From a virus: a DNA stretch of 64,000 bases. The stretch covers positions 1-64,000 of the IMG/VR virus record IMGVR_UViG_3300020463_001984, one strand, 5' to 3'. The position numbers were made by a program, and so were the translations under genes. Under the pieces are notes generated by a model. It did no database searches. It was not told the origin of the DNA and worked only from the letters and a program-made list of their open reading frames with translations. This document shows, piece after piece, positions 37,376 to 59,480 of the stretch (position 1 is its first letter; each line of letters opens with the position of its first letter).

Positions 37376-37400
37376 GAAAGGGAAATAGGAGAATCAAATT

Positions 37401-38096: not shown

Positions 38097-38097
38097 G

Positions 38098-38838: not shown

Positions 38839-38847
38839 GGAGAGAAT

Positions 38848-39570: not shown

Positions 39571-39585
39571 GGATAGGTTAGAAAT

Positions 39586-40551: not shown

Positions 40552-40575
40552 AAAAGGCGCTACGGCGCCTTTTTT
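40552..40575 (+). terminator. Rho-independent terminator
   Basis: AAAAGGCGC-TACG-GCGCCTTTTTT (UNCG loop). Confidence 0.9.
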
Positions 40576-40592
40576 ATTCTGTAAATATCTGT

Positions 40593-41414
40593 ATGCAAAC
40601 AGATGAACAGAATCAAAGACAACCAGTAAGATTTGCAGGTTTACAAATGCCTGTAACACAACAAATAGAAGAAAATAAACAAACTATTTTGGATAGTTTA
40701 GACTGGTGTAAGGATAATAAAGTAAATTGGTTACTAACACCTGAAGGATCTTTAACAGGATATTTTCCCAACTTTGATTTAGTTGCACCACAAGGTGTAA
40801 CAGGCATACAATCTGCGGCTACAGAGATAGTAGCAAAAGCACAAGGATTAGGCATAGGAATTGCATTAGGCACACTTTGGGTAGACGTCGAACATAGAGG
40901 CGCTATAAGAAAAAATCAAATAAGATATTATGATCCAGAAGGATTATTTTTAGGTACAACAAACAAGCAATACATAGTAGGCGGACAAGATAGTCCTAGT
41001 AGCAGTTGGGACCAAGTATTAGCAGACCCGCCTGGAACAATAAAAACACATTATTGTAATGGTGTCAGAACCACAGGAATGATATGTAATGATTTCTGGG
41101 GTAACGGTTTTAGATTTAATGCACCTTCTTTACCTATGTTAGCAAGTTTAAACCAAGTTGAACTTATCTTACACAGTACTAATGGCGATAGAGGTAACGA
41201 TCAAGACGAAATATGGATGGAATGGCATGATATTCATCTACGTATGATGAGTTTACAATATGGAATTCCTATTATTACAGTTGATAGTTGTTGTGATAAG
41301 TTTGGTAATAGACATGATTTACCTACAAGTAGTCCTAGTGGTGTTGTTATTAACGGCAAATGGGAAGTACAAATGCCAAGAACCGGAACTCAGATGTTCT
41401 ACTGGGATTTCTAA
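40593..41414 (+). CDS. Carbon-nitrogen hydrolase (nitrilase superfamily)
   Basis: Catalytic triad contexts TPEGSLTGY (E), NKQY (K), GMICND (C). Confidence 0.85.
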   Translation: MQTDEQNQRQPVRFAGLQMPVTQQIEENKQTILDSLDWCKDNKVNWLLTPEGSLTGYFPNFDLVAPQGVTGIQSAATEIVAKAQGLGIGIALGTLWVDVEHRGAIRKNQIRYYDPEGLFLGTTNKQYIVGGQDSPSSSWDQVLADPPGTIKTHYCNGVRTTGMICNDFWGNGFRFNAPSLPMLASLNQVELILHSTNGDRGNDQDEIWMEWHDIHLRMMSLQYGIPIITVDSCCDKFGNRHDLPTSSPSGVVINGKWEVQMPRTGTQMFYWDF

Positions 41415-41446
41415 ATAAGTATCTATATCAAAGGAAATATTGAAAC

Positions 41447-42412
41447 ATGACAGATAAAAGAAGCAGTGCAATTTTTATTAATGGCGGAGCAGGTAGAGTA
41501 ATTGCAAGTATTCCGGCATTAGAAAAATTTAAAGAAGAAAACCCAGACGACGAGTTTGTGGTTGTTTGCGAAGGAGGAGTTGATTTTTATAAAGGACATC
41601 CAGATCTTTTTAACAGAACATATGATGTTTGGCATAAAAATTTATTCCAAGACAAATTAAAAGATAGAAATTTAATTACACCTGAACCATATAGAGTATG
41701 GGAATATTATAATCAAAAATGTAATTTACATGAAGCATATGATATTGCAATTAATAATAAGGGTATTAGAGAATTATCAAAGCCTACAATAAAATTATCA
41801 ATGCAAGAACGCATGACTGGTAAGAAACTTGTAGATGAAGTTAAAGCAAAAACAGGTAAAGATAAAATTGTTGTGTTCCAATCCTTTGGTAGAGGAACTA
41901 TTAACGACAATGGTATAATTGGTGACCCATCAGGTAGAAGTTTTGAAGCAGAGAATACTGTCAATCTTGTAAAAAAACTTTCTAAACATTTTGGTGTTAT
42001 CTTTATGAGTGAGATTGCTATTGAATTCCAAAAGCACGGAGTAAAAGAACCTATTGCTATTCCACAAAATATAGAATTAAGATTCTGGCTAGGAATAATT
42101 GAAGAAGCAGATTATTTCTTAGGTTGTGATAGTGTAGGTCAACATATGGCTCATGCTTTAGATAAGCCAGCGACTGTCGTAGTTGGTAGTACATTTAAAG
42201 AAAACATTTCTTACCCTAATAACAAAAAATTTGATGTGTTAGATATGGGCGAGGGTGCAAGAGTCTATAGTCCAATTAGAATAACAATGGACGAATTATC
42301 AGACAGAACCAATGAAGGTATTATGTGGATGAATGATAAGATCGAAGAGGTCATTGTTGAAAGTTGTCTGAAAGGGGCTGGACTAAAGAAAGATGACAAA
42401 AAGAAAAAGTAG
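41447..42412 (+). CDS. GT9-like (heptosyltransferase-fold) glycosyltransferase
   Basis: N-terminal GGAGRVI..IP; C-terminal ADYFLGCDSVGQHMAHALDKPATVVVGST matches the GT9 DS..H.A.A...P motif. Confidence 0.7.
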   Translation: MTDKRSSAIFINGGAGRVIASIPALEKFKEENPDDEFVVVCEGGVDFYKGHPDLFNRTYDVWHKNLFQDKLKDRNLITPEPYRVWEYYNQKCNLHEAYDIAINNKGIRELSKPTIKLSMQERMTGKKLVDEVKAKTGKDKIVVFQSFGRGTINDNGIIGDPSGRSFEAENTVNLVKKLSKHFGVIFMSEIAIEFQKHGVKEPIAIPQNIELRFWLGIIEEADYFLGCDSVGQHMAHALDKPATVVVGSTFKENISYPNNKKFDVLDMGEGARVYSPIRITMDELSDRTNEGIMWMNDKIEEVIVESCLKGAGLKKDDKKKK

Positions 42413-43292
42413 ACTTTTCGTTTTTGGTTGTAGTTTTACAATGTATGCGTGGCCAACGTATGCAGACTTCTTAGGATATGAATTTGATCAGTTTGAGAAC
42501 TGGGGATTTCCTGGTTTAGGTAATCGTGCTATTGCTGAACGTGTAGCCGAGTGTCATATAAAAAATAATTTTACAAAAGACGATACAGTTATTGTACAAT
42601 GGAGTACACATATAAGAAATGACTGGCATACTTTTAAAAGAAGTAATTTACAACGTGGTGATGCAATTAGAAATACAGAAGATATAGGTTGGAAAACTAA
42701 AGGAAGTATTTTTAATTATTTAAACAGAGAAAAATGCTATGATGATAGTTGGATTGATACGTTCTGGGACGAACACAGTTACTTCATGCATGGACAAAAT
42801 AATATTATATTAACACAAGGATTATTAGAAAGTACAAACTGCACTTATAGAATGTTAAGCATAGGTGATATGGAAAAACTAGGAACTGATATGCCAGACT
42901 TTCCTGGGTTTGGAGAAAGTACTCAAGAAGAAACAAATGTGTATAAACAAAAACAAGAATTAGAGATTTATAAAAACATAGATAAGACTAACTGGTTAGA
43001 ACCATTAGGACTATTTGCATGGAAACATAAGCACAGTCAATACAAATTTTATGACCCAAAGACTAACAAAGACTGGGTAGAAATGCATCCTAGTCATTGG
43101 CAACATTACAAATATATGAATGAAATTATCCGTCCAAGTTTGGGTCTTAATCACGAAAATAACGATAAACAAGTTAGTACACTGAATACTTTGAATAAAC
43201 TAAAAGATGAAAATAAAGACCTTTTAAGTTTTGAAAAAGCAATTTTAGAAAATGTAATAGATTATAAGCATATAGGATATATAGGATTTTAA
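42393..43292 (+). CDS. SGNH-hydrolase-like protein
   Basis: LFVFGCSFT, N.G..G.GN..I, C-terminal HP...H. Confidence 0.55.
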   Translation: MTKRKSRLFVFGCSFTMYAWPTYADFLGYEFDQFENWGFPGLGNRAIAERVAECHIKNNFTKDDTVIVQWSTHIRNDWHTFKRSNLQRGDAIRNTEDIGWKTKGSIFNYLNREKCYDDSWIDTFWDEHSYFMHGQNNIILTQGLLESTNCTYRMLSIGDMEKLGTDMPDFPGFGESTQEETNVYKQKQELEIYKNIDKTNWLEPLGLFAWKHKHSQYKFYDPKTNKDWVEMHPSHWQHYKYMNEIIRPSLGLNHENNDKQVSTLNTLNKLKDENKDLLSFEKAILENVIDYKHIGYIGF

Positions 43293-43293
43293 T

Positions 43294-45108
43294 ATGAAAA
43301 AACCAAGTCAATGGATAGCCGCAATAGCCAGAGGACACAATGCAGGTGTATGTTTACTTAAAGATGGTAAGGTAGTATTTTCTATAGAAGAAGAAAGATT
43401 AAGTCGTCACAAGTACGATGGTGGTCCGTATGCTTCAATGATGAAAATATTAGACTATACAGATAAATTAGATTATCTTGTTGTTGCACATACACAAAGT
43501 TTAGAAGCAACAGCAGGCAAAGTAGACTTTACAGGCGATGACGTTTATACAGGACTTGCTCGTAAGATGGGATTGATTGATCGTAATCCTAAACTATTAC
43601 CTAATCATCCGCAAGTAGTTGACCTAAGTTATTTCCATCATAAGTTACACGCGGCCTTAAGTTTTTACAATAGTGGATTTGAAGATGCTGTTGCAGTTAT
43701 TGTTGACGGTGCAGGTACTTTTTTTAGTGCAAACATGAATGGTGATCCTAATCAAAATACAACACTATGGGAAACAGAAACAATTTTTGATTGTGAAATG
43801 CCTGTAGGATTTAAAACATTATATAAGCATTTAGGAACAACAGGTCCTCTATTAGGAGCAGAATATCAAAACTTTAGCGGAGAATTTTTTGCTGAAAAAG
43901 ATAATGTGCCAGAAATTGTAATCAGTGAAACAGCAGGAATTGTAAAAACATATGAAGCAGTAACAGACTATTGCGGGTTTAGTTTTATTGAAGCAGGTAA
44001 GACTATGGGATTATTTCCTTACGGTGAACAACCTAAAGAAGTTCCATCACTGTTTACCAAAGGACAAACACATCCATTAAGTGATAGAAATGTAATAGTA
44101 CCAACTTATCCAAATGGTGCTCTTGTAAACAGAAATTATTTTCACTTTTTAAGAGATAAACAAGATCAAGATGAAGACGTAACAAAATTAAAAAACAGAA
44201 GAGATATGGCTTATGCTGTACAAACTCAAACACAAGAACAAGTTGCTAACTTAATTAGAAAAGCAGTTGCAATGAGTGGAAAGAAAAATGTAGTATTAAG
44301 TGGAGGCTATGGATTAAACTGTGTAGCAAATTATTACTACCTAGAAGAATTAAAAAAAGAAGGAATCAACCTATATGTTGAACCAGTAAGTAATGATGCA
44401 GGTACGGCTATGGGTGCGGCACTATTACATTATAGAACTATATCAAGGGACAGAACTATTAATGAACAAGTAGATACGTTATACAACGGTCCAACATATA
44501 CATATGATGATACACAAATAAAAGAACTTGCGGAAAAATACGAAGCAAAAATAGATGAAGAAATAGAAAATGATTCTATTGTAGAATTATTAGCAAATAA
44601 AAATATTGTTGCTATATTTCAAGGAGGAAGTGAAAACGGACCACGTGCATTAGGCAACAGAAGTTTACTATTTGATCCTTCATTTAAAGACGGAAAAGAT
44701 TATGTTAATAAAGTAAAACGTAGAGAATATTTTAGACCATTTGCAGGTAGTATTTTAGAAGAAGATGTACATGAATGGTTTGATTTACGTGGCATGGAAT
44801 CATCACCAACTATGATGTATGCAGTAAATTGCCAAGAAGGAATAGCAGAAAAAATTCCTAGCATTATACACGTTGACGGAACTTGTAGAATACAAACTGT
44901 TAATGAAAAGCAAAACAAAAATTACTACAATTTAATTAAAGAATTTAAGAAAAAAACCGGTACTCCAATAGTATTCAATACTTCCTTTAATTTAGGTGGA
45001 GATCCACTGGTTGAAACATTGGAAGATGCACTACATACCCTAGCAAAAAGCGACATAGAGTACCTATATTTGCCCGAATATAAGGTATTGTTTACAGTTT
45101 CTAACTAG
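43294..45108 (+). CDS. O-carbamoyltransferase (CmcH/NodU/TobZ family)
   Basis: EEERLSR.K, HH..HA, DGAG, GK.MGL..YG, LSGG..LNCVAN, GPRALGNRS, RE.FRPFA, HVDGTCR.QTV, NTSFN. Confidence 0.93.
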   Translation: MKKPSQWIAAIARGHNAGVCLLKDGKVVFSIEEERLSRHKYDGGPYASMMKILDYTDKLDYLVVAHTQSLEATAGKVDFTGDDVYTGLARKMGLIDRNPKLLPNHPQVVDLSYFHHKLHAALSFYNSGFEDAVAVIVDGAGTFFSANMNGDPNQNTTLWETETIFDCEMPVGFKTLYKHLGTTGPLLGAEYQNFSGEFFAEKDNVPEIVISETAGIVKTYEAVTDYCGFSFIEAGKTMGLFPYGEQPKEVPSLFTKGQTHPLSDRNVIVPTYPNGALVNRNYFHFLRDKQDQDEDVTKLKNRRDMAYAVQTQTQEQVANLIRKAVAMSGKKNVVLSGGYGLNCVANYYYLEELKKEGINLYVEPVSNDAGTAMGAALLHYRTISRDRTINEQVDTLYNGPTYTYDDTQIKELAEKYEAKIDEEIENDSIVELLANKNIVAIFQGGSENGPRALGNRSLLFDPSFKDGKDYVNKVKRREYFRPFAGSILEEDVHEWFDLRGMESSPTMMYAVNCQEGIAEKIPSIIHVDGTCRIQTVNEKQNKNYYNLIKEFKKKTGTPIVFNTSFNLGGDPLVETLEDALHTLAKSDIEYLYLPEYKVLFTVSN

Positions 45109-45146
45109 ACAGCCTTTCCGATAAATACATATATAAAGGGGTATAA

Positions 45147-45566
45147 ATGTTTAGTTTAGACAAGTTTTTTGGCAAGGGCACTAAAGGTACAGTTTTACTT
45201 AAAAATGGTACAAATTTTAGTTATCATGGCCCATGGAAAAAAGTTACACAAAACACTGAAGTAGATAGATTCTTAGTTAATGATTTCTGTGCCGCAGAGT
45301 ACACAATAGTCATTGATTTATCGTCAACTGCTAAAGAAATAATTAAGGCACTTGTTGTAGCAGGACCTAATGATGCAAATGTAACTATATATGGTAGATC
45401 AAACCTTAATCAAGACCTACTGACGTTGACTGCAACTGTAAGTGATTCAACAGTAACACTAATTGCTAACGCACATACATCAGCAGATAGTTCAGAACTA
45501 CGTGGATCTAAGATTATATTTTCAGCAAATTACTATCAAAACCAAAATATACCAGTAGCAGGGTGA
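45147..45566 (+). CDS. Small structural-type protein (139 aa)
   Basis: Late promoter at 45121; beta-rich. Confidence 0.55.
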   Translation: MFSLDKFFGKGTKGTVLLKNGTNFSYHGPWKKVTQNTEVDRFLVNDFCAAEYTIVIDLSSTAKEIIKALVVAGPNDANVTIYGRSNLNQDLLTLTATVSDSTVTLIANAHTSADSSELRGSKIIFSANYYQNQNIPVAG

Positions 45567-45607
45567 AACAGATTCAGATAAATATGAATAGTTGGAGATA
45601 AAATAAC

Positions 45608-46648
45608 ATGGCAGTCACATATAATCCATTTGAATCTGATGCAGGCTTTAAAAGTCCTGGATTCTCTGTAGATACTCAAGGTAATGTTACTTTAAGAAGT
45701 GTAACATATACTCTTGCACAAGAAGAAGCGGCAGTAGATAATCAGTTTGTTGTACGCCAATTAGGTGCTGTTCCTTCAGCAGAATTTACCTTTGATGAAC
45801 AATATGTTTCAGGTACACAGATACTACAAAATAATCCAACTATAACATTGACTAGAGGAACTACATATTCATTTAAATTAATGACTTTGCCTCAATTAAC
45901 TTTTTCAATATTTGAAGCAAGTGAAGATAATCCAGTTGTAAACTTAACTGGTATAGGAAACTGTCGTTACTACAATACAGGTTTATCACATTTAACAGCA
46001 GGAACTCCAGGTACAACAACTACTGGAGAACAAGCACAAGGTAAAAACAATGATGTAACAACACTTAATTTAAGTCCAACTGCTCCTGCTACTTTATATT
46101 ATGGAAACGCAGACGGTAGTGTGTTTGGTACAATTACAACAGTTGATCCAACTATAACTGGTGTAGGTAGTTTCAGTAGTTTGCTTGTAACAGGTGATGT
46201 TACAATGCAAGGACAAGATGCAGATTTAGTATTTTCACCACAGGGTGCATATGGTACAGTTACCATAAATCCAGCAGGTGAAGGTACAATGAGCAACATG
46301 AATGTTAACGCATTGACTATGACTGCAAGTGAAAATGTTACATTTAATGGTGCAAATGCAAATTTATCTTTAACTCCAACAGGCACTGGTGCAATTACTT
46401 TAACAAGTGCGGCAGTAGGTACAATAAACAATATGACCATAGGACAAACTACTCCTAAAGACGGATCATTTGTAAACTTAAATGCCAGTTCTGGGTTAAA
46501 TAACACTGTAATTGGAGATGTGACACCTAAGGATGCTACGTTTACATCAGCAGTTTCACAAGCAACTCCAACCACGGATTTGCAAGTAACTAACAAGAAG
46601 TACGTCGACAGTAAAGCAACCGCACTAGCGATTGCACTAGGAGTATAA
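45608..46648 (+). CDS. Fibre-type structural protein (346 aa)
   Basis: NPTITLTRGTTYSF..AP.TLYY module, IG..TP..G.F repeats, NKKYVD, C-terminal ALAIALGV. Confidence 0.65.
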   Translation: MAVTYNPFESDAGFKSPGFSVDTQGNVTLRSVTYTLAQEEAAVDNQFVVRQLGAVPSAEFTFDEQYVSGTQILQNNPTITLTRGTTYSFKLMTLPQLTFSIFEASEDNPVVNLTGIGNCRYYNTGLSHLTAGTPGTTTTGEQAQGKNNDVTTLNLSPTAPATLYYGNADGSVFGTITTVDPTITGVGSFSSLLVTGDVTMQGQDADLVFSPQGAYGTVTINPAGEGTMSNMNVNALTMTASENVTFNGANANLSLTPTGTGAITLTSAAVGTINNMTIGQTTPKDGSFVNLNASSGLNNTVIGDVTPKDATFTSAVSQATPTTDLQVTNKKYVDSKATALAIALGV

Positions 46649-46654
46649 AAGTAA

Positions 46655-49600
46655 ATGGCAAAGCAAAAGCAAAATGAATATGTATTCCAGACTGGTATTC
46701 CTTTCTCTGAAAGTAGACGTCCTAATGCTTATTGGTTAGTACAAAATAATGTAGAATTTATTAAGGACGAAGTTCGTGCTTATATCAATAATAACATTAC
46801 TAGACAAGCAACACAAAGTCAGTTTACTCCAACAAATGCAACATACGATCCAACAACAGGATTGATGGTTGTTACTGTAGGTACACATAACTTATTACCA
46901 GGTGACCAAGTAATTTTTGCAACAGGGGCAATAACATTTACAACTGCTCAAGATGGAGGTGCAACTCAGTATGCGTATCCAAGAGCAACAGGAGCCGGCA
47001 CAACAACAGGCTGGGATCCATGGTATAATAAGCCAGTTGTAATTACAGCAATAAGTTCTGATTCAATAACTTGCAAAGTAGGAAAGACTGTAAACCAAAC
47101 TGCACATACATACGTAAGTGCAACTGCATTGAGTATATCAAACGCATTTAGAAATTACACAAATGATAGTGATGCAAAATGTGAAAGAGATATGGGTTAC
47201 AACCTTATTGGTGGAGATACAAATAATCCTGTACAAGATCAGCCAGGCGGACTTTTATATGATTTAAGATATAATGGTAATGAGCAAGGAAGATATCTTG
47301 CTTCGACATATTGGGATGGAACAATTCCACAGATTGATGGCGATAGAAATCCAGAAAGAGCGGCAAAACAATTTGCTACTTGGTTAATCCAAACTCACAT
47401 TTTTGGTAATACTGCATATACTACAAAACAAAGTCCAGTAGTTACATCACAAACTATTAATGCTGAATACGTTGCTGAAACAGATGCAGGTACAGTAGTA
47501 GAAAATATTTTAGATAACGTTATTGGTGAGGTAATTTATTATGGTTTAGATAATATGCCTGCACTATCTAACGCACAGGTTTCAAGTGTAAGATTTCCAA
47601 CAAAAGTTACATTAGATAATGTATTATTAATTACAAATACATCAACTAACGAAGTTTTGTTTAACTTTAGTGATCCAACAGCAGGAGGTAGCACAGCATA
47701 CGTTACTAAATCTGTTGAGTTTACACCTTCATTTAGTTACTTTAACAAATTTTTAGAAAACACAGATACCATTACAACTGTTTACTTTGACAAGTCTACA
47801 GAAAATAAAACTTATGTACAAAATGCTAGAACATTAATTACTAATAACAAAGAATTTATTAAAGATGAAGCAGTTGCTTGGGTGCTAGATAAAGTTAACA
47901 CAGCAACAGGCGGATCAACATTTGATGGTTACACATATACTGGTGCATTAATTGAAAGAGATACTGCAACAGAAATAGATGGCTTCCTTCATGATATGCA
48001 ATATGGTGGAAATGAAAAAACTAGATTACAAGCAAGTAAGTTTTGGGATGGTCCTACTCCATTAATTACAGGAACTAGGATACCTGAAAAAGAATTAAAA
48101 GAATTTGTAAGAGACTTAATTAATAATTATATCTTAACTAAATCTGCTTACACAACAAAACAAAGTCCTAGTGTTACTACACAAACATTTAATGGTGCAA
48201 ATGCAGAGTTAGGTGCATCAGATAGAATAACAGAACTTACAACAATTATTACAACAGTAATTGCCGGCGGATTGTCGACATTACCTATATTAGATAAACC
48301 TATTATTAATTCCTTAACTGATAAAATACAAATTTTTGTTGATCAAGGTGATTTAAAAACTAGACCATATGACTTTGGTACAGATGCAATTGAGAGACAA
48401 AGAGTTGCTAACTCTTTATCAATGCTTGATGCTGACTTTGAATACGGCCTACAGCCTACGAAGTGGCAAGCCATTGGAACACAAAGAGGTTATCCTAGTA
48501 TTTACGAAGTACCTGGTACTGATACGCAAGTTACATCAGTTGCCACTGATGCTTCAACAGGAACAAGTGGTGTTGGTCAAAGTTTAATTACAGTTACAAC
48601 AGCATCAGCACACGGGTTTGAACCAGGCGTTCCTATTACAATTAAAGCATTGGCAAATAGTATTGCAGGGGCAAGTAGAGCAGAAGGATCATTTATCGTT
48701 AACACAGTTCCTACTAACTTTACATTTACATATTTTGCAAAAGCAAAAGTTGGTACTGTCAACGGACAAATACTTTCAACTTTTTATACACAATTAAGAA
48801 AAGGTGGATTTTACACTGGTGCATCAATTGGCGGACAAAATGTTGCATTTAGTATTATTTCACAGGGTGCAAGTGGATCATTTATTGCAACACTAGGTAT
48901 TCCAAGCGGATCAGATCAAATAGCATACACAGGAACAGCACCAGAGATTGGTGCTCCATTAGTTGCAGTAGGCGGAGGTATTCCTTTAGGTTCTCAGGTT
49001 ACAGGTACAGAAGGTACAGGTGGCATTGTTACAACTCCAGTTACAACTTCGGACGTTTCATCAGGATCAAATACAATTACAGTACAAAATGTTTCAGGTA
49101 TTGTTAATGGTTTAGGTTTGAATAGAGGTGACGGTTATGCAACTTTCGTAACTAACGTTGTTGGTAATACAGTTACTTTATCAGATGCACTTACGGCTGA
49201 TTTTGTTGGTAACACAGTTCAATATACAGGATTAGCAGGAAGTAATGATTCCTCAATTGGTAATGGTGCAACGTTTGATGTTAGTAGATCAGGTGGAACA
49301 TATTCAGTAACACTTAACGCACCAGGACAAGATTATAGACTAGGTGATAACATTGTTATCAGTGGACAATTAGTAGGTGGTTCAGACACAACAAACGATT
49401 TAAGACTTGTAGTTACATCAGTTGACACAGGTGGTGAATTACAAACATTTGATGACACTGGTAGTGCATTTGACGGTAATGGAACATTTTCAAATTTACC
49501 AGGTGAACTACAAGGTTCAATTGGTACAGGCGGTAACTTTGATATTGTATATACAAACAATGTTTACTCAGTATCAATGGCATCTCCAGATACATCAAGC

Positions 49601-52600: not shown

Positions 52601-53317
52601 TCACAGTATAATGATAGATATAGTCCGATTACAATTGACTATTCACCAATACAAACAATTGGTACTCCGTTAATAGGTGCATACATTGAATCACAAAATC
52701 CAACTAATGCTTTCAACGCCAATCAATATGTGATATCAGGAGTAGGACCATTAGAAGGTAATGGATTTAGATACAGAATATTCTACACAGGACCAAATGG
52801 AACTAACAGAGCAAGTAACTTGTCTACAACATCAACAACTTTAAAATTCATATACAAAACGTACACAGGATTTACAAACAAATTGTTGTTTACTAAAGCA
52901 TCATGGGAGGCTTCGGGAGCAGGACAAGGTACAGAGGTTGCATCAAGTGACTTGAATTGGCCAGCGGGTACGTTTGTACAGTCGGTTAGTTCATTAACAC
53001 ACTGTGGAACAGAATTTTACGAAGTTACATTTAACCAAACATCGGTTGCAACGATAAGTGCAGGTGATAGTGTAACGTTCTTATTTGGTAATCCACCTTA
53101 TGCACAGCCAGGTGAAACTATATTTTCATTTATTGCACAACCAGGTGAAAGAGCAACATTGAATCTTGCAGAGATCAAAGAGTTAACTAATACTACACTA
53201 GGTGGTAGAGGTACTTTTCCAAATGGTCCAGACGTGTTAGCAATTAACGTTTATAAAACAGCGGGAACGGCCGTAGATGCAAATATTATTCTACGTTGGT
53301 CGGAGGCACAGGCTTAA
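46655..53317 (+). CDS. Giant virion structural protein (2220 aa)
   Basis: Thr/Gly-rich; tandem G.GY..GD.I.I.G..(L/V)GG....NDL.L.V repeats; DADFEYGLQPTKW and RYQSGKG motifs. Confidence 0.75.
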   Translation: MAKQKQNEYVFQTGIPFSESRRPNAYWLVQNNVEFIKDEVRAYINNNITRQATQSQFTPTNATYDPTTGLMVVTVGTHNLLPGDQVIFATGAITFTTAQDGGATQYAYPRATGAGTTTGWDPWYNKPVVITAISSDSITCKVGKTVNQTAHTYVSATALSISNAFRNYTNDSDAKCERDMGYNLIGGDTNNPVQDQPGGLLYDLRYNGNEQGRYLASTYWDGTIPQIDGDRNPERAAKQFATWLIQTHIFGNTAYTTKQSPVVTSQTINAEYVAETDAGTVVENILDNVIGEVIYYGLDNMPALSNAQVSSVRFPTKVTLDNVLLITNTSTNEVLFNFSDPTAGGSTAYVTKSVEFTPSFSYFNKFLENTDTITTVYFDKSTENKTYVQNARTLITNNKEFIKDEAVAWVLDKVNTATGGSTFDGYTYTGALIERDTATEIDGFLHDMQYGGNEKTRLQASKFWDGPTPLITGTRIPEKELKEFVRDLINNYILTKSAYTTKQSPSVTTQTFNGANAELGASDRITELTTIITTVIAGGLSTLPILDKPIINSLTDKIQIFVDQGDLKTRPYDFGTDAIERQRVANSLSMLDADFEYGLQPTKWQAIGTQRGYPSIYEVPGTDTQVTSVATDASTGTSGVGQSLITVTTASAHGFEPGVPITIKALANSIAGASRAEGSFIVNTVPTNFTFTYFAKAKVGTVNGQILSTFYTQLRKGGFYTGASIGGQNVAFSIISQGASGSFIATLGIPSGSDQIAYTGTAPEIGAPLVAVGGGIPLGSQVTGTEGTGGIVTTPVTTSDVSSGSNTITVQNVSGIVNGLGLNRGDGYATFVTNVVGNTVTLSDALTADFVGNTVQYTGLAGSNDSSIGNGATFDVSRSGGTYSVTLNAPGQDYRLGDNIVISGQLVGGSDTTNDLRLVVTSVDTGGELQTFDDTGSAFDGNGTFSNLPGELQGSIGTGGNFDIVYTNNVYSVSMASPDTSSGYVEGDVIKVDGFDIGGQSVTNDLFMKVTNTGTGGSITSVSATGTAPDASVNYASVTYTTNTAAGVGADFNVERVGTGANVSVASGGTGYLAGETFTVLGSQVGGVDGVNNLTITVATIDVNGTILTVTDAGTMVNTKTIPNWTSVTNIVGNGAKFTISLASQTYTLDQIDVAGQSYGVDQTIIIRGTDLGGATPANDLTLTITGVGSSGEVTTANIVGTGAAGTGSYTGVNGTNDANSGSNAVFNITRSGGTYSIVTATDNGSGYKKGDRIVIPGNQLGGATPTNDLTLRCDINSTEGDFLNIQISGTAVPGNTAALYSSVTMSEAATQNISPTTSITYSALATVQCDFETAHGLVPGNTFLITVESDDASNNHNLCAGPFNATAVPTTKRLQYQCRAPGAINTGTNNDDPIQGFIYPRPDSFFVHRPYDGGVQLGTGGPQHGAQAIRQSKKYIRYQSGKGIMYTTGALFAPSYDLLQVTANGTSIGSTITCTTDDTDHGLQVGGGIRLIGINTVGFNGDYVVSDINSEREFEVLAINALGSTTPELSAKAQVSVKTFHGATVRSGCFDDQNGIFFEYDGTQFSAVQRTATLQLAGVVDIAVDTNTVTGTGTRFREQLKAGDRIVIKGMTHVVSDVISNTQMSVAPDFRGVTNVLSSKLCLVQDKKTEQKDFNRDRMDGTGPSGYNIDISKMQMVGIQYSWYGAGFIDYMLRGADGNFVFGHRMRNSNINTEAFMRTGNMPVRYEVTNEGPVGKLSANVTDTATTLPLEDASFFPPEGGIVYIDNEMIQFTGVDGKNLTGCTRGAQMTNFASGATRTYSAGTAETHTRNTGVPLISNTISPIISHWGSAYITDGGFDFDRGYLFSYKATGTSISTTRYTSFLIRLAPSVSNAIVGDLGERELLNRAQLLLDGLEVTSEPNASGQKGGIVIEGVLNPQNYPVNPNDIGWEGISGLASGGQPSFAQIAAGGSVNWNGGATQTTASAVVQADIDSGFNYTRTSQYNDRYSPITIDYSPIQTIGTPLIGAYIESQNPTNAFNANQYVISGVGPLEGNGFRYRIFYTGPNGTNRASNLSTTSTTLKFIYKTYTGFTNKLLFTKASWEASGAGQGTEVASSDLNWPAGTFVQSVSSLTHCGTEFYEVTFNQTSVATISAGDSVTFLFGNPPYAQPGETIFSFIAQPGERATLNLAEIKELTNTTLGGRGTFPNGPDVLAINVYKTAGTAVDANIILRWSEAQA

Positions 53318-53693
53318 CTTCATCAGTCTTTTGACTGTCCCCAGGAATAATTCTGTAATTATCTTCAACTGAATCAGCAGTACTAACCTCAGTTACTGAA
53401 CTATTGGGTTCAAGTGCTTCTAATTGGTGTGGCATCAATGGAGGATTATGCCAAGTGTCGCCAGGATTGAGTTCTTTGGTATAAAGTTTTGCTTCTTGGG
53501 TGTCAATATACCTTAATAAAAACTTACCAGCATTAACAAACCAAGTTTCATCTTTCTCTTTATGGAAATGCATGGAAAACTTTGCACCTTGCTTTTCAAA
53601 TACCATAATTTTACCACAATACTTGTCATTGGTTGCCCATATCAATTCATATCCCCAACCCTTAGGCACTTTTCCTTCTAATCTATTACTCAT
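53286..53693 (-). CDS. Cupin (sugar-phosphate isomerase-like)
   Basis: VPKGWGYE, SMHFH..K.ETW.V..G, P...HQL. Confidence 0.8.
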   Translation of the reverse strand: MSNRLEGKVPKGWGYELIWATNDKYCGKIMVFEKQGAKFSMHFHKEKDETWFVNAGKFLLRYIDTQEAKLYTKELNPGDTWHNPPLMPHQLEALEPNSSVTEVSTADSVEDNYRIIPGDSQKTDEVKPVPPTNVE

Positions 53694-54417
53694 TTAGATA
53701 TTTTCCTTTAATTGCATTGTAACTTCCCTTAAATTTGCTTTGAAACTTGAGGTTTGACTTGTAACTATCAATAAATTTTGCATCATCTTCATCTTTTACC
53801 GTATAATTTATTTTATCTAATTTTACAGGCTTGTACATTGCAATTGGCGTACCTTTTTTGAGTAAAAATTTGCCTTTTTTCTTAATTAACAGTTGTTGGT
53901 TTATTTGATGGCTCCATTCAGTGTATGTTAGTCCTGGTAGGCACTCAAAAAACTCATTAAATTCATAAAACATAGGTAATTGCATCATGCCCCAACCCTT
54001 GCTTGTTTTAACTCTCCAAGGACAATCAGTTTTTGCAACTAACTTTACTTCGCTTTGAACATTTTCTGGTGTGTGGTCAAGAAACTGTTCCTTATAATGT
54101 AAAGACATGGTAAAATCTTCATTACTACACTTCCAACCAAAGTCTTTATCAGTAATATTAAAATGAAAGTCTGCCCATAATGGAATCACAAAGGCATCTT
54201 TATAAAAATCTACTATACCTGGACAATTTTTGGCAGTACCTTTATCGAAAGGATTGTCTTCTTCTAACCATCTTGGCATTTTCTTGAACCATTCTGGAAA
54301 AAACTTGTTTGCAGGTTGTACTGGTTCAAGGTCTGTTAGGCCAGGTACAGTACTCCACCACTCTACCTTTGGTTTTTTACTGCCTATCAATCCAGTCAAT
54401 AACGTTTTCAAACTCAT
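53686..54417 (-). CDS. Hypothetical protein (243 aa)
   Basis: TAKNCPGIVD, PW..KT..GW, KKGTPIA pattern; translationally coupled in the operon. Confidence 0.6.
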   Translation of the reverse strand: MSLKTLLTGLIGSKKPKVEWWSTVPGLTDLEPVQPANKFFPEWFKKMPRWLEEDNPFDKGTAKNCPGIVDFYKDAFVIPLWADFHFNITDKDFGWKCSNEDFTMSLHYKEQFLDHTPENVQSEVKLVAKTDCPWRVKTSKGWGMMQLPMFYEFNEFFECLPGLTYTEWSHQINQQLLIKKKGKFLLKKGTPIAMYKPVKLDKINYTVKDEDDAKFIDSYKSNLKFQSKFKGSYNAIKGKYLNE

Positions 54418-55195
54418 AGTTTAAACTCTCTTGTAATTTTGTGTTATCTGCACAGGTATATGCCTGATAATTTTTTGCAATGTCTTTAGGCATGGGTATT
54501 AGATCAACATTTACACCATATTTGTCAGCAACTTTATCTGCAATAGTTTTAAAACTTGTTGCCTCTCCTGTACCTACATTGAATATTCCGCTTTTATCAA
54601 CATCTAGCATTTTTGCATGAACTTTGCAAACATCTTCAACACTAACAAAGTCACGTTTATAATTTTCACTGTTTTCGAATAACTTAATATTTTGATTTGC
54701 TTTTGCCTGTTTAGTAAATTTGCTTACAGGACTCATTTGATCACCTTTGTGATCTTCGCCATTACCAAAAACATTAAAATATCTAAATCCTTGTATATTA
54801 ATTCTAAAGTCTTTACTATAACTTTTAACAAATCTATCTACTAGGTACTTTGACCAAGCATATGGACTCTCTGGATGCAAGTCTGCGTCTTCATTAAAGT
54901 CATTTGTGTTACCATATAGGTTTGCAGTGCTAGAGTATTGCATACTTGTACCCATCATATCACACAATTCAATCAGTTTTAAAGTAAAGTCTGTATTTTG
55001 TTGCATAATCTTTTCAACATCTTTTTCAGTTGTACTACTAATAGCACCACAATGAATTACTCTATCACATTGTGCAGGATCAGGATACTTATTAGGGATA
55101 TATTCCCAACCTTCAACTTGGTGTCCTATGCTTACGAGATATCCAGCAAGTTGTGATCCTATAAAACCATCAGTTCCTGTGACTAGTATTTTCAT
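54377..55195 (-). CDS. hldD: ADP-L-glycero-D-manno-heptose 6-epimerase
   Basis: VTG..GFIGS, H.GAISSTTE, Y..SK, GFRYFNVFG..E.HKG, RDFV.V.D, YQ.YTCAD. Confidence 0.88.
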   Translation of the reverse strand: MKILVTGTDGFIGSQLAGYLVSIGHQVEGWEYIPNKYPDPAQCDRVIHCGAISSTTEKDVEKIMQQNTDFTLKLIELCDMMGTSMQYSSTANLYGNTNDFNEDADLHPESPYAWSKYLVDRFVKSYSKDFRINIQGFRYFNVFGNGEDHKGDQMSPVSKFTKQAKANQNIKLFENSENYKRDFVSVEDVCKVHAKMLDVDKSGIFNVGTGEATSFKTIADKVADKYGVNVDLIPMPKDIAKNYQAYTCADNTKLQESLNYEFENVIDWIDRQ

Positions 55196-56442
55196 TGTTT
55201 AATCTTTTCTATAGTTTCTGTTGTACTATGTCCTTCGATCGTAGGAAAAATTACAACTTTTGCTAATTCATTGCCTACAGTGGTTTCAGTAGTATAGTCA
55301 CCACCCTTAACTATTACGTCTGGACGTATTTTTGTTATTTCATCAATGGGAGTATCTCCATCGAATATAACAACATCATCTATAAATCCTAATTGTTCTA
55401 AAGTTTCTTTCCTTTTGAATTCACTGTTAATGGGTCTTGTTTCGCCTTTTAAACGTTTAACACTTGCATCGCTGTTTATACCTACTATTAACCTTTTGCC
55501 TAGTGTAGCGGCGTATCTAAGCAGTTTTAAATGGCCAGTATGCAGTATATCAAACACTCCATTAGTCCATACAATACCTTTATTTAGGTCGTCTTCTGTA
55601 ACTATTGTTACTCCACGTTTTTCAACTACTCTTGAAGCACCATAACAAGCAACTTCGCATGATTCAGGAACACTTTTTCCTTTATGTAAACCGTGTGTAA
55701 TAATTGCCATGACTGTATCACCTGCACCAGATACATCTGCAACTTCTTGTACGTCTTCTTTACAATGCCAATGTTCTGTTGCGTTAACAATATGAATACC
55801 ATTAGCACCATCAGTTACTACTAACCATTCCCAAGCGTATTCTTTTAAAAAATCTTGTGCGGCCACATAACTGAATTCACCAAACCATTCAGTATATTCT
55901 TTCATGTTTGGTTTTACTAAAAATGCACCTCTATAGTAAGAAGGAGATTGCTTAGGATCAACTAAAACTTTTGCACCTTTGGCTTTTGCCTTTTTTACTG
56001 TCTGTTCAGTTATAGCACCTTTGTTGTAATCACTTATTACCACTAAATCATTATGCTGAATACTATTAATAAATCTTTCTTCTGCTTGAGTACAATCACA
56101 TATTGCGTCTGTATCAAATCTACAAATTTGTTGACCTTGTGTACTTACAATTCTTACCTTGCTTGTTGTTGCTTCCATACAACTTGACAAATAAGAATTA
56201 ACTTTTGTGTCTTTTATTAAATCTAAAAATGCAAAACCTTGTTTGTCATTTCCTAAAGGTCCATATAAATCAACTTCACCGTTTATACTTGCAAGGTTGA
56301 CTGCTAAATTACCTGCACCACCAACGTTTCTTTTATAGCCTGTTTCTACTAAAACTGGAACCGGAGCCTCAGGACTTATTCTATCTACAGAACCTATTCT
56401 CCATTCATCAAGCATTACGTCACCGTAAACTAAAATGGCCAT
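55192..56442 (-). CDS. hldE: Bifunctional heptose-7-phosphate kinase / heptose-1-phosphate adenylyltransferase
   Basis: GDVMLD, RISPEAPVPV, GGAGN, ISDYNKG, DVSGAGDT; TNGVFDILHTGH, NSDASVKRLKG..RP, VKGGDY, GHSTT. Confidence 0.93.
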   Translation of the reverse strand: MAILVYGDVMLDEWRIGSVDRISPEAPVPVLVETGYKRNVGGAGNLAVNLASINGEVDLYGPLGNDKQGFAFLDLIKDTKVNSYLSSCMEATTSKVRIVSTQGQQICRFDTDAICDCTQAEERFINSIQHNDLVVISDYNKGAITEQTVKKAKAKGAKVLVDPKQSPSYYRGAFLVKPNMKEYTEWFGEFSYVAAQDFLKEYAWEWLVVTDGANGIHIVNATEHWHCKEDVQEVADVSGAGDTVMAIITHGLHKGKSVPESCEVACYGASRVVEKRGVTIVTEDDLNKGIVWTNGVFDILHTGHLKLLRYAATLGKRLIVGINSDASVKRLKGETRPINSEFKRKETLEQLGFIDDVVIFDGDTPIDEITKIRPDVIVKGGDYTTETTVGNELAKVVIFPTIEGHSTTETIEKIKQ

Positions 56443-56883
56443 TTACTTCTCCAATAGTTGAATTAAATCAAATACAGTTTCTAATTTTGTTTGATTAGTT
56501 TTATTTTGTAAGGTGTTCTTCAATCCCATGTGCAATGGTTTAGGCCATTTATTAAAACTTGACCAAGCATATCCATCATGCTCTTCATTCAATACAGGAA
56601 TAAATTCTTCATGAACTACAACAAGATATGTATGGAACTTAAATTTTTCGTCTGTGCTTACAAATGTTTCTAAAGGAATTGTTTTAGCAATTTTTGGTAA
56701 TGTACCAATCTCTTCTTTTATTTCTCTTTGTAGACTTTCCCATGGAGTTTCTTTGGAATTGTTAGTACCACCAACTAATCCCCAAACATTGTTCTGTTTG
56801 CTCTGTACTCTATGTAGAAACAAAAAACGTTTAGTTTTTAATGAATAGAATAAGGCTCCACTGCAAATAATATCTTGACTCAT
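56443..56883 (-). CDS. Nudix hydrolase
   Basis: Nudix box GGTNNSKETPWESLQREIKEEIG. Confidence 0.88.
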   Translation of the reverse strand: MSQDIICSGALFYSLKTKRFLFLHRVQSKQNNVWGLVGGTNNSKETPWESLQREIKEEIGTLPKIAKTIPLETFVSTDEKFKFHTYLVVVHEEFIPVLNEEHDGYAWSSFNKWPKPLHMGLKNTLQNKTNQTKLETVFDLIQLLEK

Positions 56884-56895
56884 ACTATTAATTAT

Positions 56896-58317
56896 TTAAA
56901 ATAGTAGGTGCCAAGTGCCGTTTCGGTATTCGCCTTCGAAAGATAGCACCCATTCTGTACCAGTCCATTTATATTGGATGCCTGTATTAAGATTAGTTTG
57001 GTAAATTATATCACTATTAGCACTAGCATCAAATAAGATTGCCCATGCTGTTCCTGTCCATTCTACAATATCATTTTCACTTGCTACAAAGTCAGTGTTA
57101 TCTGCATTTTTCCAAGCATCTGGACCGTCTGTGTTGCCTGCATTACCAATATCCCCTAATAGTAAGAATCTTGTACCTGGTGTTTTTTGTACTGTAGGAT
57201 TAAATGTTGCAGGATCTATAATATAATCAACTTTACTTCTATTGCCAGTTGAACCTGCAATAACTTTGTCTGTTGGAAATGTATCAGTGTCCCAATTAAT
57301 AATTAAGTTTCTTTCATCTGTTGTATCAATTGCCGCTGATCCGTTAATACTTGTTGTTCTACCTGTTCTTGATAATTGTATTTGACTTAATCCTGATCTA
57401 AATTGTTCAGGCATTGCATCTACGTATTGTGTCCAAGTAACACCGCCAATTTTTCCTTTATGGATTAATTTTGCTACATTACCCATTACTAATAAATCTA
57501 AATTATTATAAGTTGTAACACGAACACTTGCAGTGTCTTTACGTTTAGATTTGTTTGCATCTTCAAAGTCAGTAGTTGGACTTTCAGCACCGCCATCACT
57601 ATATGCTTTAAGTTCAGGCATACTTTCGCCTAAGTCTATTGTTCCACGGCTTTCGTCAAATATACTCATTACGATATTTGTAATGACTCCAAGTTTTTTA
57701 ACTTTAGTAGGAGGTGAAATGTAAATTGGTGTTTTAACTGATAGTTGACTAACGTCTATTTCGTTTTCTGTTCCTACAGGAATACTTCTTGAACTAAAAT
57801 TTACTGTTTCTAATTCAACAACACTTAAACTTGTCCAGTCTACATAGTTGTCAGTTGTTTGGATTTCTAAACTAGGATTAAACATCATTAAAATTTGTTC
57901 CATAATTTGTAATTTTTGATCTGTATTAGTAGACCAAATATCAGCAGTCATTTCTAACGTATATGGAGTTGGCATTAAACGTTCAACTGTTACATTTTTA
58001 CCTTGTGTGTTTAAATATTCTTTACCTGTGCTATCATATGAACGTTCTCTAAGATGTACTTTACTAACAAATGTACTATCACTAATTCTATCTCTATCTA
58101 ATTGTAAGCCTGATATGTAGACACTTATTCTTGGAGCACTAGGTATTTTGTTTTCTGAATTATCTCTCATGATGTGTCCAACCTGTCTGGTTATATCTCC
58201 ATACATGACAGGGACTTTTACTAAAGCACCTTTACCGTCCTTATAGGTAAAGTTACTCAAAAGTCTAATCATTTGAGTGACATATCTTCTTATTTGACCA
58301 TCATAAAAATGTTGCAT
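56896..58317 (-). CDS. gp15: Tail completion/terminator protein (T4 gp15-like) with C-terminal extension
   Basis: FYDGQIRRY, VPV.YG, P.PY.L, DQKLQI.EQIL..FNP. Confidence 0.8.
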   Translation of the reverse strand: MQHFYDGQIRRYVTQMIRLLSNFTYKDGKGALVKVPVMYGDITRQVGHIMRDNSENKIPSAPRISVYISGLQLDRDRISDSTFVSKVHLRERSYDSTGKEYLNTQGKNVTVERLMPTPYTLEMTADIWSTNTDQKLQIMEQILMMFNPSLEIQTTDNYVDWTSLSVVELETVNFSSRSIPVGTENEIDVSQLSVKTPIYISPPTKVKKLGVITNIVMSIFDESRGTIDLGESMPELKAYSDGGAESPTTDFEDANKSKRKDTASVRVTTYNNLDLLVMGNVAKLIHKGKIGGVTWTQYVDAMPEQFRSGLSQIQLSRTGRTTSINGSAAIDTTDERNLIINWDTDTFPTDKVIAGSTGNRSKVDYIIDPATFNPTVQKTPGTRFLLLGDIGNAGNTDGPDAWKNADNTDFVASENDIVEWTGTAWAILFDASANSDIIYQTNLNTGIQYKWTGTEWVLSFEGEYRNGTWHLLF

Positions 58318-59480
58318 TAATTATCCGCCTTAGGTTTAAGTGCTTTTGAAAGTGCTTGTCTTTCAGTTACTGTTTCACCACCTATTGTTGATGTAGTTGT
58401 GTTGTTTATAAATGTTCCTTTTTGTGTTCTCTTGTTAGGACTGTTAGTTAAGTTATGTCTTACAGCATCTTCTACTTTAACCCAACGTCTACTATCAAAT
58501 CTAAATAATCTATTTGGCATAAAATCTGTCCTTAGGAAGTAATCTCCTTCTACACTTGCAGTTGGGAAACTAATACCATGTCCAAATACTTCACCATTTG
58601 GTGCTAGTCCATCACCTATTAAGTAACCTTGATAACCACTACGTTCTGGAGTTTGATTTACTCTACTTGCATCTAAGTTTCCACTGTTAACACTTGCATC
58701 TATTGTTGCTTCATCGGCAGTTACAAGTTCTGGATTATTCTCTGCATCTACTTGTAATGTATATAAGTGTGATGTGTCATATCCTGACTTAGGTGCATCT
58801 GCTTCTGCTTGTGATACAACAGCATCATTAATTTGCATCTCTCTTTCATAAGTAGAAAGTACATCTCGCAATGTTTGTGAAGAACCTTCTTCACTTGGTA
58901 AATCTAATATTTCTTTAAATTCTTGTGAATCAACTATTTGCTTCATTTTGATTCTATATATGTGCGGATACCATGTTTGTGAAAAACCTTCACTTGCACG
59001 ATTTACATCTTCAACTACATAAAATCTTTTTAATGCCACACTATAATCATTTAGTGCGTGTTCATCTTTAAGGTGTGGTAATTCTAATACATCACCTGAC
59101 ATTATTTTTCTGCCTAAAGTTTTTACACTATAATTAATAGGCAATGTCATAAACAATGTATCATTCTGTAAAAATAAACCAAATTGGCTCATGTCAAAAT
59201 CTACATCTTGTACATTGTAAATTCCACGCATAACATATACATCAGGATCATACTTTCTATCACGGTTTTCCATGAAAAGCATATCTTGAATATTCGTTTC
59301 TTTGACTGCATTGTACCTTGGTTGGTCAGCAGTAGCATCTGCTTCATCGGGATTCTTAGGTCCTAGATATTTGTGTACAAATACATCAGTGCCACCAACA
59401 GTGAACATCTCCTGTATGGTTTTATCTAGAAATTCGTAATCTTTCCCTTTTTCGGGTTTGTATAAACTCAGTCTTGGCAT
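58317..59480 (-). CDS. gp14: Neck protein (T4 gp14-like)
   Basis: G.DV..HKY, D.LF.EN, SQFGLF, GD..ELPH; position between gp13 and gp15. Confidence 0.75.
   Translation of the reverse strand: MPRLSLYKPEKGKDYEFLDKTIQEMFTVGGTDVFVHKYLGPKNPDEADATADQPRYNAVKETNIQDMLFMENRDRKYDPDVYVMRGIYNVQDVDFDMSQFGLFLQNDTLFMTLPINYSVKTLGRKIMSGDVLELPHLKDEHALNDYSVALKRFYVVEDVNRASEGFSQTWYPHIYRIKMKQIVDSQEFKEILDLPSEEGSSQTLRDVLSTYEREMQINDAVVSQAEADAPKSGYDTSHLYTLQVDAENNPELVTADEATIDASVNSGNLDASRVNQTPERSGYQGYLIGDGLAPNGEVFGHGISFPTASVEGDYFLRTDFMPNRLFRFDSRRWVKVEDAVRHNLTNSPNKRTQKGTFINNTTTSTIGGETVTERQALSKALKPKADN

Follow-up and report, generated by a model that had tools for sequence, protein, structure and literature searches.

Gene organization of the locus

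The window analysed here is a 64,000-nucleotide stretch of viral DNA (positions 1 to 64,000 of the IMG/VR record IMGVR_UViG_3300020463_001984). It contains a cassette of genes predicted to supply, transfer and tailor a heptose, located among neck and fibre genes of a jumbo myovirus. A previous reading of the sequence, hereafter the original prediction, regarded the cassette as a candidate virion glycosylation system. The cassette consists of two convergent gene blocks, which flank a gene for a protein of 2220 amino acids (aa), and the genes within each block abut or overlap by a few bases (Table 1). All genes named in the original prediction, namely hldE, hldD and the genes for a cupin, a Nudix hydrolase, a nitrilase (carbon-nitrogen hydrolase, CN-hydrolase), a GT9-like glycosyltransferase, an SGNH-like protein and a carbamoyltransferase, are present. 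They are under purifying selection, with ratios of nonsynonymous to synonymous substitution rates (dN/dS) of 0.03-0.14 against the nearest relative at dS 0.5-0.9; the value for the CN-hydrolase gene is 0.056. The order of the genes had to be corrected, as the Nudix gene comes first after gp15 and the cupin gene last, and genes for proteins of 243 aa, 139 aa (p139) and 346 aa (p346) had not been mentioned. The TAAATA motifs expected at 40581 and 41411 are present and start one base later, at 40582 and 41412, and the one described just before the Nudix gene is found at 56898-56893 on the minus strand. The position of the minus-strand block downstream of gp14 and gp15 is confirmed for gp15, a tail sheath stabiliser (PF16724), whereas the sole match pointing to gp14 is to a PHROG family annotated as 'virion structural protein'.

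No transmembrane segment or signal peptide was predicted in any cassette enzyme. Neither block contains a convincing predicted terminator; the few hairpin matches do not exceed the number obtained with shuffled sequence. The 3′ ends of the 2220-aa gene and the cupin gene overlap by 32 nucleotides (nt; 53286-53317), and no terminator was predicted between them.

Table 1. Genes and sequence elements of the heptose cassette and its neighbours, with positions in the window
Feature	Position	Strand	Remark
Terminator-like hairpin and T run	40552..40573	+	closes preceding cassette of Cys/Gly-rich and chaperone proteins
TAAATA late-promoter-like motif	40582..40587	+	starts 11 nt before CN-hydrolase ATG
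CN-hydrolase (nitrilase superfamily), 273 aa	40593..41414	+	PF00795
TAAATA late-promoter-like motif	41412..41417	+	35 nt before GT9-like gene; overlaps CN-hydrolase stop codon
GT9-fold glycosyltransferase-like protein, 321 aa	41447..42412	+	T4-GC302, phrog_8954
SGNH/GDSL-fold esterase- or acyltransferase-like protein, 299 aa	42393..43292	+	fold and invariant residues
NodU/CmcH/TobZ-type O-carbamoyltransferase, 604 aa	43294..45108	+	T4-GC303; Pfam
p139, 139 aa, probably structural	45147..45566	+	own TAAATA at 45122
p346, 346 aa, Thr-rich, acidic, probably fibre component	45608..46648	+	own TAAATA at 45579
Virion structural or fibre protein, 2220 aa	46655..53317	+	phrog_5838
Cupin, 135 aa	53286..53693	-	T4-GC307, phrog_7851; last gene of minus-strand operon
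243-aa protein	53686..54417	-	phrog_7084
Short HldD-like ADP-glycero-manno-heptose 6-epimerase (SDR), 272 aa	54377..55195	-	T4-GC308
Fused HldE-like heptose-7-P kinase/heptose-1-P adenylyltransferase, 416 aa	55192..56442	-	PF00294 and PF01467
Nudix hydrolase, 146 aa	56443..56883	-	first gene after gp15; TAAATA at 56898-56893
gp15-like tail sheath stabiliser	56896..58317	-	PF16724; heads minus-strand operon with upstream gene
gp14-like virion structural protein	58317..59480	-	phrog_11591; TAAATA at 59494-59489

Predicted functions of the cassette enzymes

The sugar donor would be supplied by the minus-strand block. The HldE-like protein would phosphorylate and then adenylylate heptose phosphate. 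It contains a PfkB kinase domain (PF00294) and a cytidylyltransferase-like domain (PF01467), and its best NCBIfam match is HldE (NF008454). The scores lie below the equivalog cut-offs (349.8 bits vs 521, and 247 vs 345 and 155 vs 181.5 for the domains). The nearest solved structures are HldA (4e84) and HldC (5x9q). The short HldD-like protein would then epimerise ADP-heptose, and the two enzymes together would raise or provide the ADP-heptose pool. TIGR02197 is the best family match of the HldD-like protein, although its score of 226.8 bits falls short of the cut-off of 274.6. The best solved match is 1eq2, and Y140...K144 is matched by Y-A-W-S-K (YxxxK). Compared with E. coli HldD, the protein is short of about 25 residues between positions 18 and 68, in the NADP-binding segment, and equally long cyanophage homologues lack them too. 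Isomerisation and dephosphorylation would have to come from the host, or from the cupin and the 243-aa proteins. Among the Atlas clusters related to the 243-aa protein, DUF6065 is found in 12-21% of the members.

Transfer of the heptose onto an acceptor would be catalysed by the GT9-fold enzyme, and the co-located HldE and HldD genes point to ADP-heptose as its donor. The protein shows no Pfam match at E≤0.01 and matches TIGR02201 weakly (E 3e-4, 19.9 bits vs a cut-off of 170). Its AlphaFold2 model, with a predicted local distance difference test score (pLDDT) of 95.6, matches solved GT9 structures at Z 18.8-23.5 (3tov 23.5, WaaF 21.2, TibC 19.9, WaaC 19.6) and other GT-B folds at Z of at most 12.2. 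A profile of 57 relatives matches only WaaC and WaaF in the PDB, and PF01075 is matched by 25 of the 57 at E≤0.01, with a best E value of 5.6e-8 (32.9 bits vs a cut-off of 22). Residues D228 and H233, which align to D261 and H266 of WaaC and to WaaF, are invariant in the family. Across the family, the donor-site residues D228, S229, H233, G247 and T249 are invariant or nearly so. The protein therefore has a GT9 fold, in keeping with the GT9-like transferase of the original prediction, but it cannot be classed simply with WaaC or TibC.

The difference lies in the loop after strand β1, which reads G-G-A-G-R. Arg17 falls on Asp13 of WaaF and on Asp13 of WaaC, the catalytic base of the latter enzyme. 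This position is Arg in at least 90% of the family and Lys or Ser in a few members. The call is based on a HMMER profile and MAFFT, with the alignment anchored by a shared Gly and a P-A-L motif in common with WaaC; hhalign against single WaaC and WaaF sequences covered the C-terminal domain only. The equivalent residue in TibC, Asp110, is the catalytic base of that enzyme (PMC4358343). As the catalytic Asp is replaced, the chemistry or the acceptor of the GT9-like protein may be unusual, or the protein may be non-catalytic. WaaC and WaaF (CAZy GT9) resemble it in the GT-B fold (Z 19-21), the size and the D...H donor motif; it differs from them in the Arg for Asp13, the lack of a Pfam GT9 match, its near-neutral instead of basic character and its location in a late structural operon of a phage. 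With TibC/AAH it has the GT9 catalytic domain in common (Z 19.7-19.9). It is shorter (321 aa vs about 400) and is devoid of the N-terminal extension, the four cysteines of the iron finger, the β-hairpin thumb and an equivalent of Asp110. The Arg for the catalytic Asp, together with the lack of the TibC N-terminal extension and iron finger, shows that the family is a distinct, mainly phage-borne GT9 branch that is neither WaaC nor TibC.

Two further observations concern this family. The model also matches subunits of the chloroplast supercomplex of NAD(P)H dehydrogenase-like complex and photosystem I (NDH-PSI; 7wff_a, 9grx_1 and 7f9o_6) at Z 18-19, on a par with WaaC; the subunit is non-enzymatic. 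In the metagenomic protein P0258 (558 aa), a GT8 domain is naturally fused to a GT9-like domain from this family, which hints that some family members build a di- or oligosaccharide.

The GT9-like protein might not be a transferase but a fibre-assembly or receptor-related factor that has kept the nucleotide-sugar-binding fold, with the heptose and carbamoyl genes serving separately. The Arg, Lys or Ser in place of the catalytic Asp, the matches to the NDH chains 7wff_a and 9grx_1 at Z 18-19 and the occurrence of the gene alone between tail genes in the Vibrio phage SBP1 are in line with such a role. We regard it as very unlikely, as the donor site is invariant or nearly so, the gene is always paired with a carbamoyltransferase gene in myoviruses, and at least six clade genomes have kept both HldE and HldD in the same region.

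Tailoring of the transferred sugar would fall to the O-carbamoyltransferase and the SGNH-fold enzyme, joined in this subclade by the CN-hydrolase. The carbamoyltransferase consists of a Kae1-like N-terminal domain (PF16861, Carbam_trans_N, 197.8 bits) and a YrdC-like C-terminal domain (PF02543, Carbam_trans_C, 81.5 bits), both above the cut-offs. Its nearest solved relatives are 7xb6, NovN, GdmN and TobZ. The 299-aa protein has no Pfam match; its top Foldseek matches are all GDSL/SGNH esterases (probability 1.0, E 3e-4), and the fold is flavodoxin-like. Residues S14, G41/G43, N44 and H232 are invariant in 24 sequences, and block I reads FGCS, not GDS. The CN-hydrolase matches PF00795 with 33.3 bits against a cut-off of 23.2, and its PE51, RK107 and IC165 motifs are read as a Glu-Lys-Cys triad by motif resemblance. 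Its gene was found only in the close subclade. To judge from the sequence, the product of the cassette is probably an O-carbamoyl heptoside, possibly O-acylated, made late in infection. The heptose and carbamoyl biochemistry of the original prediction is supported by HldE and HldD as best family matches, by the GT9 fold with its WaaC-type donor motif and by the SGNH-fold protein and the O-carbamoyltransferase as tailoring enzymes, and it has a precedent in the carbamoyl-heptose of Pseudomonas.

A gene for an MTS/HemK-like methyltransferase follows the carbamoyltransferase gene in jumbo-phage loci of the L008 type (L008 13586-14221; L001 18764-19468). A PF05175 gene is also found in the S-SSM7 cassette, and the methyltransferase is another possible tailoring or protein-modifying step.

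The carbamoylated heptose could instead be part of a soluble secondary metabolite, for instance a signal, a toxin or an antibiotic, a proposal made by Iyer et al. for S-SSM6a. This would agree with the nearest solved carbamoyltransferases TobZ, GdmN and NovN, which are antibiotic tailoring enzymes, with the derivation of heptose-containing natural products from NDP-heptose (PMC9978623), with the halogenase and HemK-like methylase in the same region of S-SSM7 (PMC7824862) and with the MTS methyltransferase of the L008-type loci. The window, however, contains no halogenase and no nonribosomal peptide synthetase, polyketide synthase or aminocyclitol-type scaffold enzymes. Only the transferase-carbamoyltransferase pair is conserved, always among fibre genes, and late timing leaves a lytic phage little time to benefit. 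A metabolite as the product is thus distinctly unlikely.

Late motifs, conservation and related cassettes

The T4-type late motif TAAATA is found 5-45 nt upstream of 23 of the 58 genes in the record, whereas 1.24 are expected. The genes preceded by it include fibre, sheath and terminase genes, and not those for the deoxynucleoside monophosphate (dNMP) kinase, the gp32-like protein and the 2-oxoglutarate (2OG) oxygenase. Both sugar blocks begin at TAAATA motifs. In the 82 loci retrieved with the GT9-like protein, the motif stands before the GT9-like gene in 44 and before the carbamoyltransferase gene in none; it also stands before the p139 gene in 49 of 51 loci and before the p346 gene in 36 of 36, against a background of 0.025 per 50 nt. 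This pattern is expected of an operon under a late-type promoter. The late timing claimed in the original prediction is supported at the level of the motif, and also in related loci. Seven genes, those for the CN-hydrolase and the terminase among them, have a TAAATA whose first base lies exactly 11 nt ahead of the start codon ATG (window 5885, 11150, 40582 and 61246 on the minus strand; L003 5354, 9718 and 11320), which suggests a class of nearly leaderless late mRNAs.

The promoters also bear on the idea that the heptose is placed onto a modified base of the phage DNA. Some metagenomic phage GT-B enzymes place heptose on 5-hydroxymethylcytosine (bioRxiv 10.1101/2023.12.21.572611), and genes for a dNMP kinase and a 2OG-Fe(II) oxygenase are present in the record. 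These DNA-metabolism genes lack TAAATA, and the associations of the cassette are with late promoters and fibre genes rather than with genes of replication. Furthermore, no hydroxymethylase, C5-methyltransferase or TET gene adjoins the cassette, and the published DNA-modifying enzymes resemble T4 β-GT and BshA/MshA, not GT9. DNA hypermodification is therefore extremely unlikely.

The carbamoyltransferase gene lies downstream of the GT9-like gene on the same strand in all 82 loci, and the SGNH gene lies between the two in 46. Of 12 loci anchored on the fibre chaperone, all have the CN-hydrolase and GT9-like genes downstream, 11 the SGNH gene and 10 the carbamoyltransferase gene, that is, every contig long enough. 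In four relatives (L043, L051, L052 and L031) the genes for the gp14-like protein, gp15, Nudix, GT9-like protein, SGNH protein, p303 and carbamoyltransferase follow each other on one strand with abutting codons. The sugar enzymes in these phages directly continue the gp14-gp15 neck operon. Another five contigs of the clade contain the gp15-Nudix-HldE-HldD unit (49-96% identity); the cupin gene was also found in two of these, and the 243-aa gene in the remaining three. Identity across the clade is 60-70% for the GT9-like protein and the carbamoyltransferase and 37-55% for gp15, and the fibre proteins are likewise less conserved than the two enzymes. A distant homologue, clearly a member of the GT9-like family (hhalign 99.8%, E 8e-29), is encoded by the N4-like Vibrio phage vB_VspP_SBP1. 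It has retained the motifs GGxGR, PEPY and CD(T/S)...H, and its gene is located between a 'tail fiber protein' and a 'tail family protein' gene, with no carbamoyltransferase or heptose genes nearby. The association of this GT9 branch with tail-fibre genes holds in three phage families, and the positional tie to fibre and neck genes that had been noted in the window is thus a recurrent one.

The source record is a 76-kb IMG/VR fragment, about 21% complete (CheckV). Its major capsid protein shares 67-71% identity and its terminase 44-51% identity with those of Rak2/GAP32/PA5oct/Phosso-type jumbo myoviruses. Five related IMG/VR contigs (behind loci L017, L034, L045, L046 and L063) are 165-223 kb long, are rated 45-60% complete and encode capsid proteins 81-85% identical to that of the window. 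The record and the related contigs form a coherent clade of marine/aquatic jumbo myoviruses of about 360 kb. A megablast search of both gene blocks against 50,697 phage records gave no match, and the relatives were found at the protein level only. The phage is widespread: the 6.1-kb query stretch (window 40581-46700) is near-complete in metagenomes of nine or more sequencing studies. The cassette shared with cyanophages raised the possibility of a cyanobacterial host, which was set aside, as no psbA turned up in the five incomplete contigs of 165-223 kb and both capsid and terminase are of the Rak2/PA5oct type. Kinship with the aquatic jumbo lineage of 'moraphages' (PMC12619734) was dismissed, as that lineage does not belong to the T4 group.

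The cassette is homologous to the cyanomyovirus 'LPS genes' (for lipopolysaccharide, LPS) T4-GC302-308, so its kind is already known, and it represents this kind in the jumbo-phage lineage. The carriers among the cyanomyoviruses are P-SSM2 (PSSM2_307-313), S-SSM7 (SSSM7_120-133)/S-SSM6a, S-CAM1/3 and Sf-FS3. In these phages GC302 and GC303 are followed by a split HldE (GC304/305), GmhA (GC306), the cupin (GC307) and the epimerase (GC308). Identity to the window proteins is 51-62% for the GT9-like protein, 47-63% for the carbamoyltransferase, 30-37% for HldE, about 41% for the cupin and 37-39% for the epimerase. The location, with tail-fibre genes on one side and the neck genes gp13-15 on the other, is also shared. 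The window phage differs from these carriers in being a Rak2/PA5oct-like jumbo phage, in its fused HldE, in the additional SGNH and CN-hydrolase genes and in the place of its heptose genes, which lie on the opposite strand, across the 2220-aa fibre gene, directly behind gp15. GmhA, present in the cyanophages, was not found in its 76-kb fragment. The cyanophage cassette has been read as O-chain modification genes in a host-recognition cluster (PMC7029224), as genes for capsule decoration or a halogenated sugar-derived secondary metabolite (PMC7824862) and as 'LPS genes' of unclear functionality, possibly 'stuffer DNA' (PMC3037559); the 'LPS gene' label on the heptose and carbamoyltransferase genes of marine T4-like phages dates from 2005. 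No proposal of virion glycosylation for it was found in a limited literature search.

Some neighbouring genes recur as well. The protein p139 is the counterpart of the N-terminal part of 497-568-aa proteins in some relatives (e.g. L008 14318-16024), which have weak cupredoxin/plastocyanin-like and Calx-β matches. The region 36644-40533 of the window encodes Cys/Gly-rich proteins of about 240 aa (PF21722) and tail-fibre chaperone-like proteins (PF16778), and such genes precede the cassette in most loci. Among the isolates searched with tblastn, the Cys-rich protein was found only in S-SSM7, S-SSM6a and Sf-FS3, all three of which have the GT9-like gene.

Candidate acceptors of the heptose and significance

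We propose that the cassette encodes a soluble cytoplasmic glycosylation pathway, which would be transcribed together with the late neck and fibre genes of the jumbo myovirus. The acceptor would most likely be one or several fibre or neck proteins that the phage itself encodes and produces concurrently, so that the cassette would act as a putative virion glycosylation system; we assign this reading a probability of roughly 0.4. The late-type promoters, the membership in neck and fibre operons and the core-like conservation of the genes argue for a virion acceptor. It is also favoured by the lack of a membrane or lipid-carrier step and by the recurrence among fibre genes of unrelated phages. 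The reading is plausible and is now better grounded than in the original prediction.

Precedents exist for its separate parts. TibC and AAH are cytoplasmic enzymes that use ADP-heptose as donor and O-heptosylate Ser in β-helical fibrous proteins and adhesins (PMC4358343), which provides the functional analogy behind the virion hypothesis. Mycobacteriophages, as far as the citing papers report, encode glycosyltransferases that decorate their own capsid and tail proteins (Freeman et al. 2023, cited in PMC12619734 and PMC12801897), and virion glycosylation as described there likewise favours a virion acceptor. The mycobacteriophage system differs from the cassette in its Gram-positive-type actinobacterial hosts. 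To our knowledge, it comprises neither nucleotide-sugar synthesis genes nor carbamoylation.

As acceptors, the proteins encoded next to the cassette come into question. The 346-aa protein, with 24% Ser+Thr and an isoelectric point (pI) of 4.2, is a candidate. The 2220-aa protein is a virion protein, as it matches the PHROG virion structural protein family phrog_5838 with an E value of 1e-242, and in stretches it is 40% similar to tail-fibre proteins of S-SSM7 and P-SSM2. Its richness in Thr and Ser, pointed out in the original prediction, is real (20.5% Ser+Thr) but not distinctive, and was rejected as a special signal, as the other large virion proteins of the window have 18-19.5%.

The main alternative is remodelling of the host envelope. 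The carbamoyl-heptose would be placed on the host LPS core or on another surface glycan, and would block superinfection or the adsorption of progeny to debris. This is the standard reading of the cyanophage 'LPS genes' (PMC3037559, PMC7029224, PMC7824862). The core of Pseudomonas LPS contains 7-O-carbamoyl heptose, and the GT9 enzymes WaaC and WaaF stand there alongside the NodU-family protein WapO (PA5005), whose function is putative (PMC8005017). The window cassette resembles this system in combining GT9 enzymes with a NodU-family carbamoyltransferase; the Pseudomonas system differs in being a chromosomal LPS core pathway with heptose kinases. WaaC and WaaF are among the closest solved relatives of the GT9-like protein, and members of its family are annotated by the Joint Genome Institute (JGI) as ADP-heptose:LPS heptosyltransferase. 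Assembly of the core takes place at the cytoplasmic face of the membrane and is thus compatible with soluble enzymes, and the GT8-GT9-like fusion P0258 suggests the building of an oligosaccharide. Because of the LPS ancestry of GT9 and the carbamoyl-heptose precedent, envelope remodelling remains a serious rival.

It is nevertheless rather unlikely. The late-type promoters and the location in neck and fibre operons speak against it, and the module has no lipid-carrier transferase, flippase, polymerase or ligase. The catalytic Asp of WaaC and WaaF is missing. LPS heptosyltransferases are known as basic, membrane-binding proteins, whereas the GT9-like protein has a pI of 6.4. The same GT9-like family is found among the tail-fibre genes of a lytic N4-like podovirus. 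Finally, cyanophages have the cassette although the LPS of cyanobacteria has been reported to contain neither heptose nor Kdo (3-deoxy-D-manno-octulosonate) (PMC4515613).

Several points weigh against glycosylation of the virion. Among the GT9 enzymes that have been characterised, most have LPS as their target, and it is in an LPS core that carbamoyl-heptose is known to occur (PMC8005017). In T4-like phages, cargo genes are often parked in between structural ones. At the position of the catalytic base (WaaC D13, WaaF D13 and TibC D110), the GT9-like family carries Arg or Lys, a change that fits none of the readings cleanly. The GT9-like model aligns to TibC residues 90-391 only and lacks the N-terminal region of about 90 residues, and no conserved Cys was found in the invariant or near-invariant columns, so there is no TibC-type Cys4 iron finger. 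HldE and HldD are absent from the sampled 45-60% of four other clade genomes. The genes gmhA (PF13580) and gmhB (TIGR00213), which the original prediction had correctly noted as absent from the window, gave no match in the wider search of the 76-kb record and of relatives' contigs of 92-223 kb; as all of these are fragments (21-60% complete), this does not prove that the genome lacks them. Contigs of RNA libraries from four studies match parts of the genes for the CN-hydrolase, the GT9-like protein, the SGNH protein, the carbamoyltransferase and p346, and of fibre genes, with at least 99% identity, but they cannot give level, strand, timing or certain transcription, and DNA carry-over is possible. 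No such contig covers HldE or HldD, which proves nothing, as the runs were chosen with the 40581-46700 stretch.

A more general proposal, put forward tentatively and with somewhat more doubt than the virion reading of this cassette, is that the phage-specific and widespread GT9 branch with Arg for Asp O-heptosylates tail-fibre or neck proteins, and that the sugar is then O-carbamoylated in marine jumbo phages and cyanomyoviruses.

What is new is that the transferase-carbamoyltransferase pair is conserved, under selection, associated with late-type promoters and located inside the fibre and neck arrays of three phage families. A vague annotation thereby becomes a specific question that can be answered in cultured phages. 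If the targets are host glycans, the cassette would be a late-acting receptor-masking system of lytic phages. If the virions are glycosylated, views of host recognition, particle stability and grazing or immune recognition would have to change for abundant ocean viruses. If the GT9 branch O-heptosylates tail-fibre or neck proteins, it would provide phages of Gram-negative bacteria with their first example of a virion glycosylation system, and the 20-year-old puzzle of the cyanophage 'LPS genes' would be explained.

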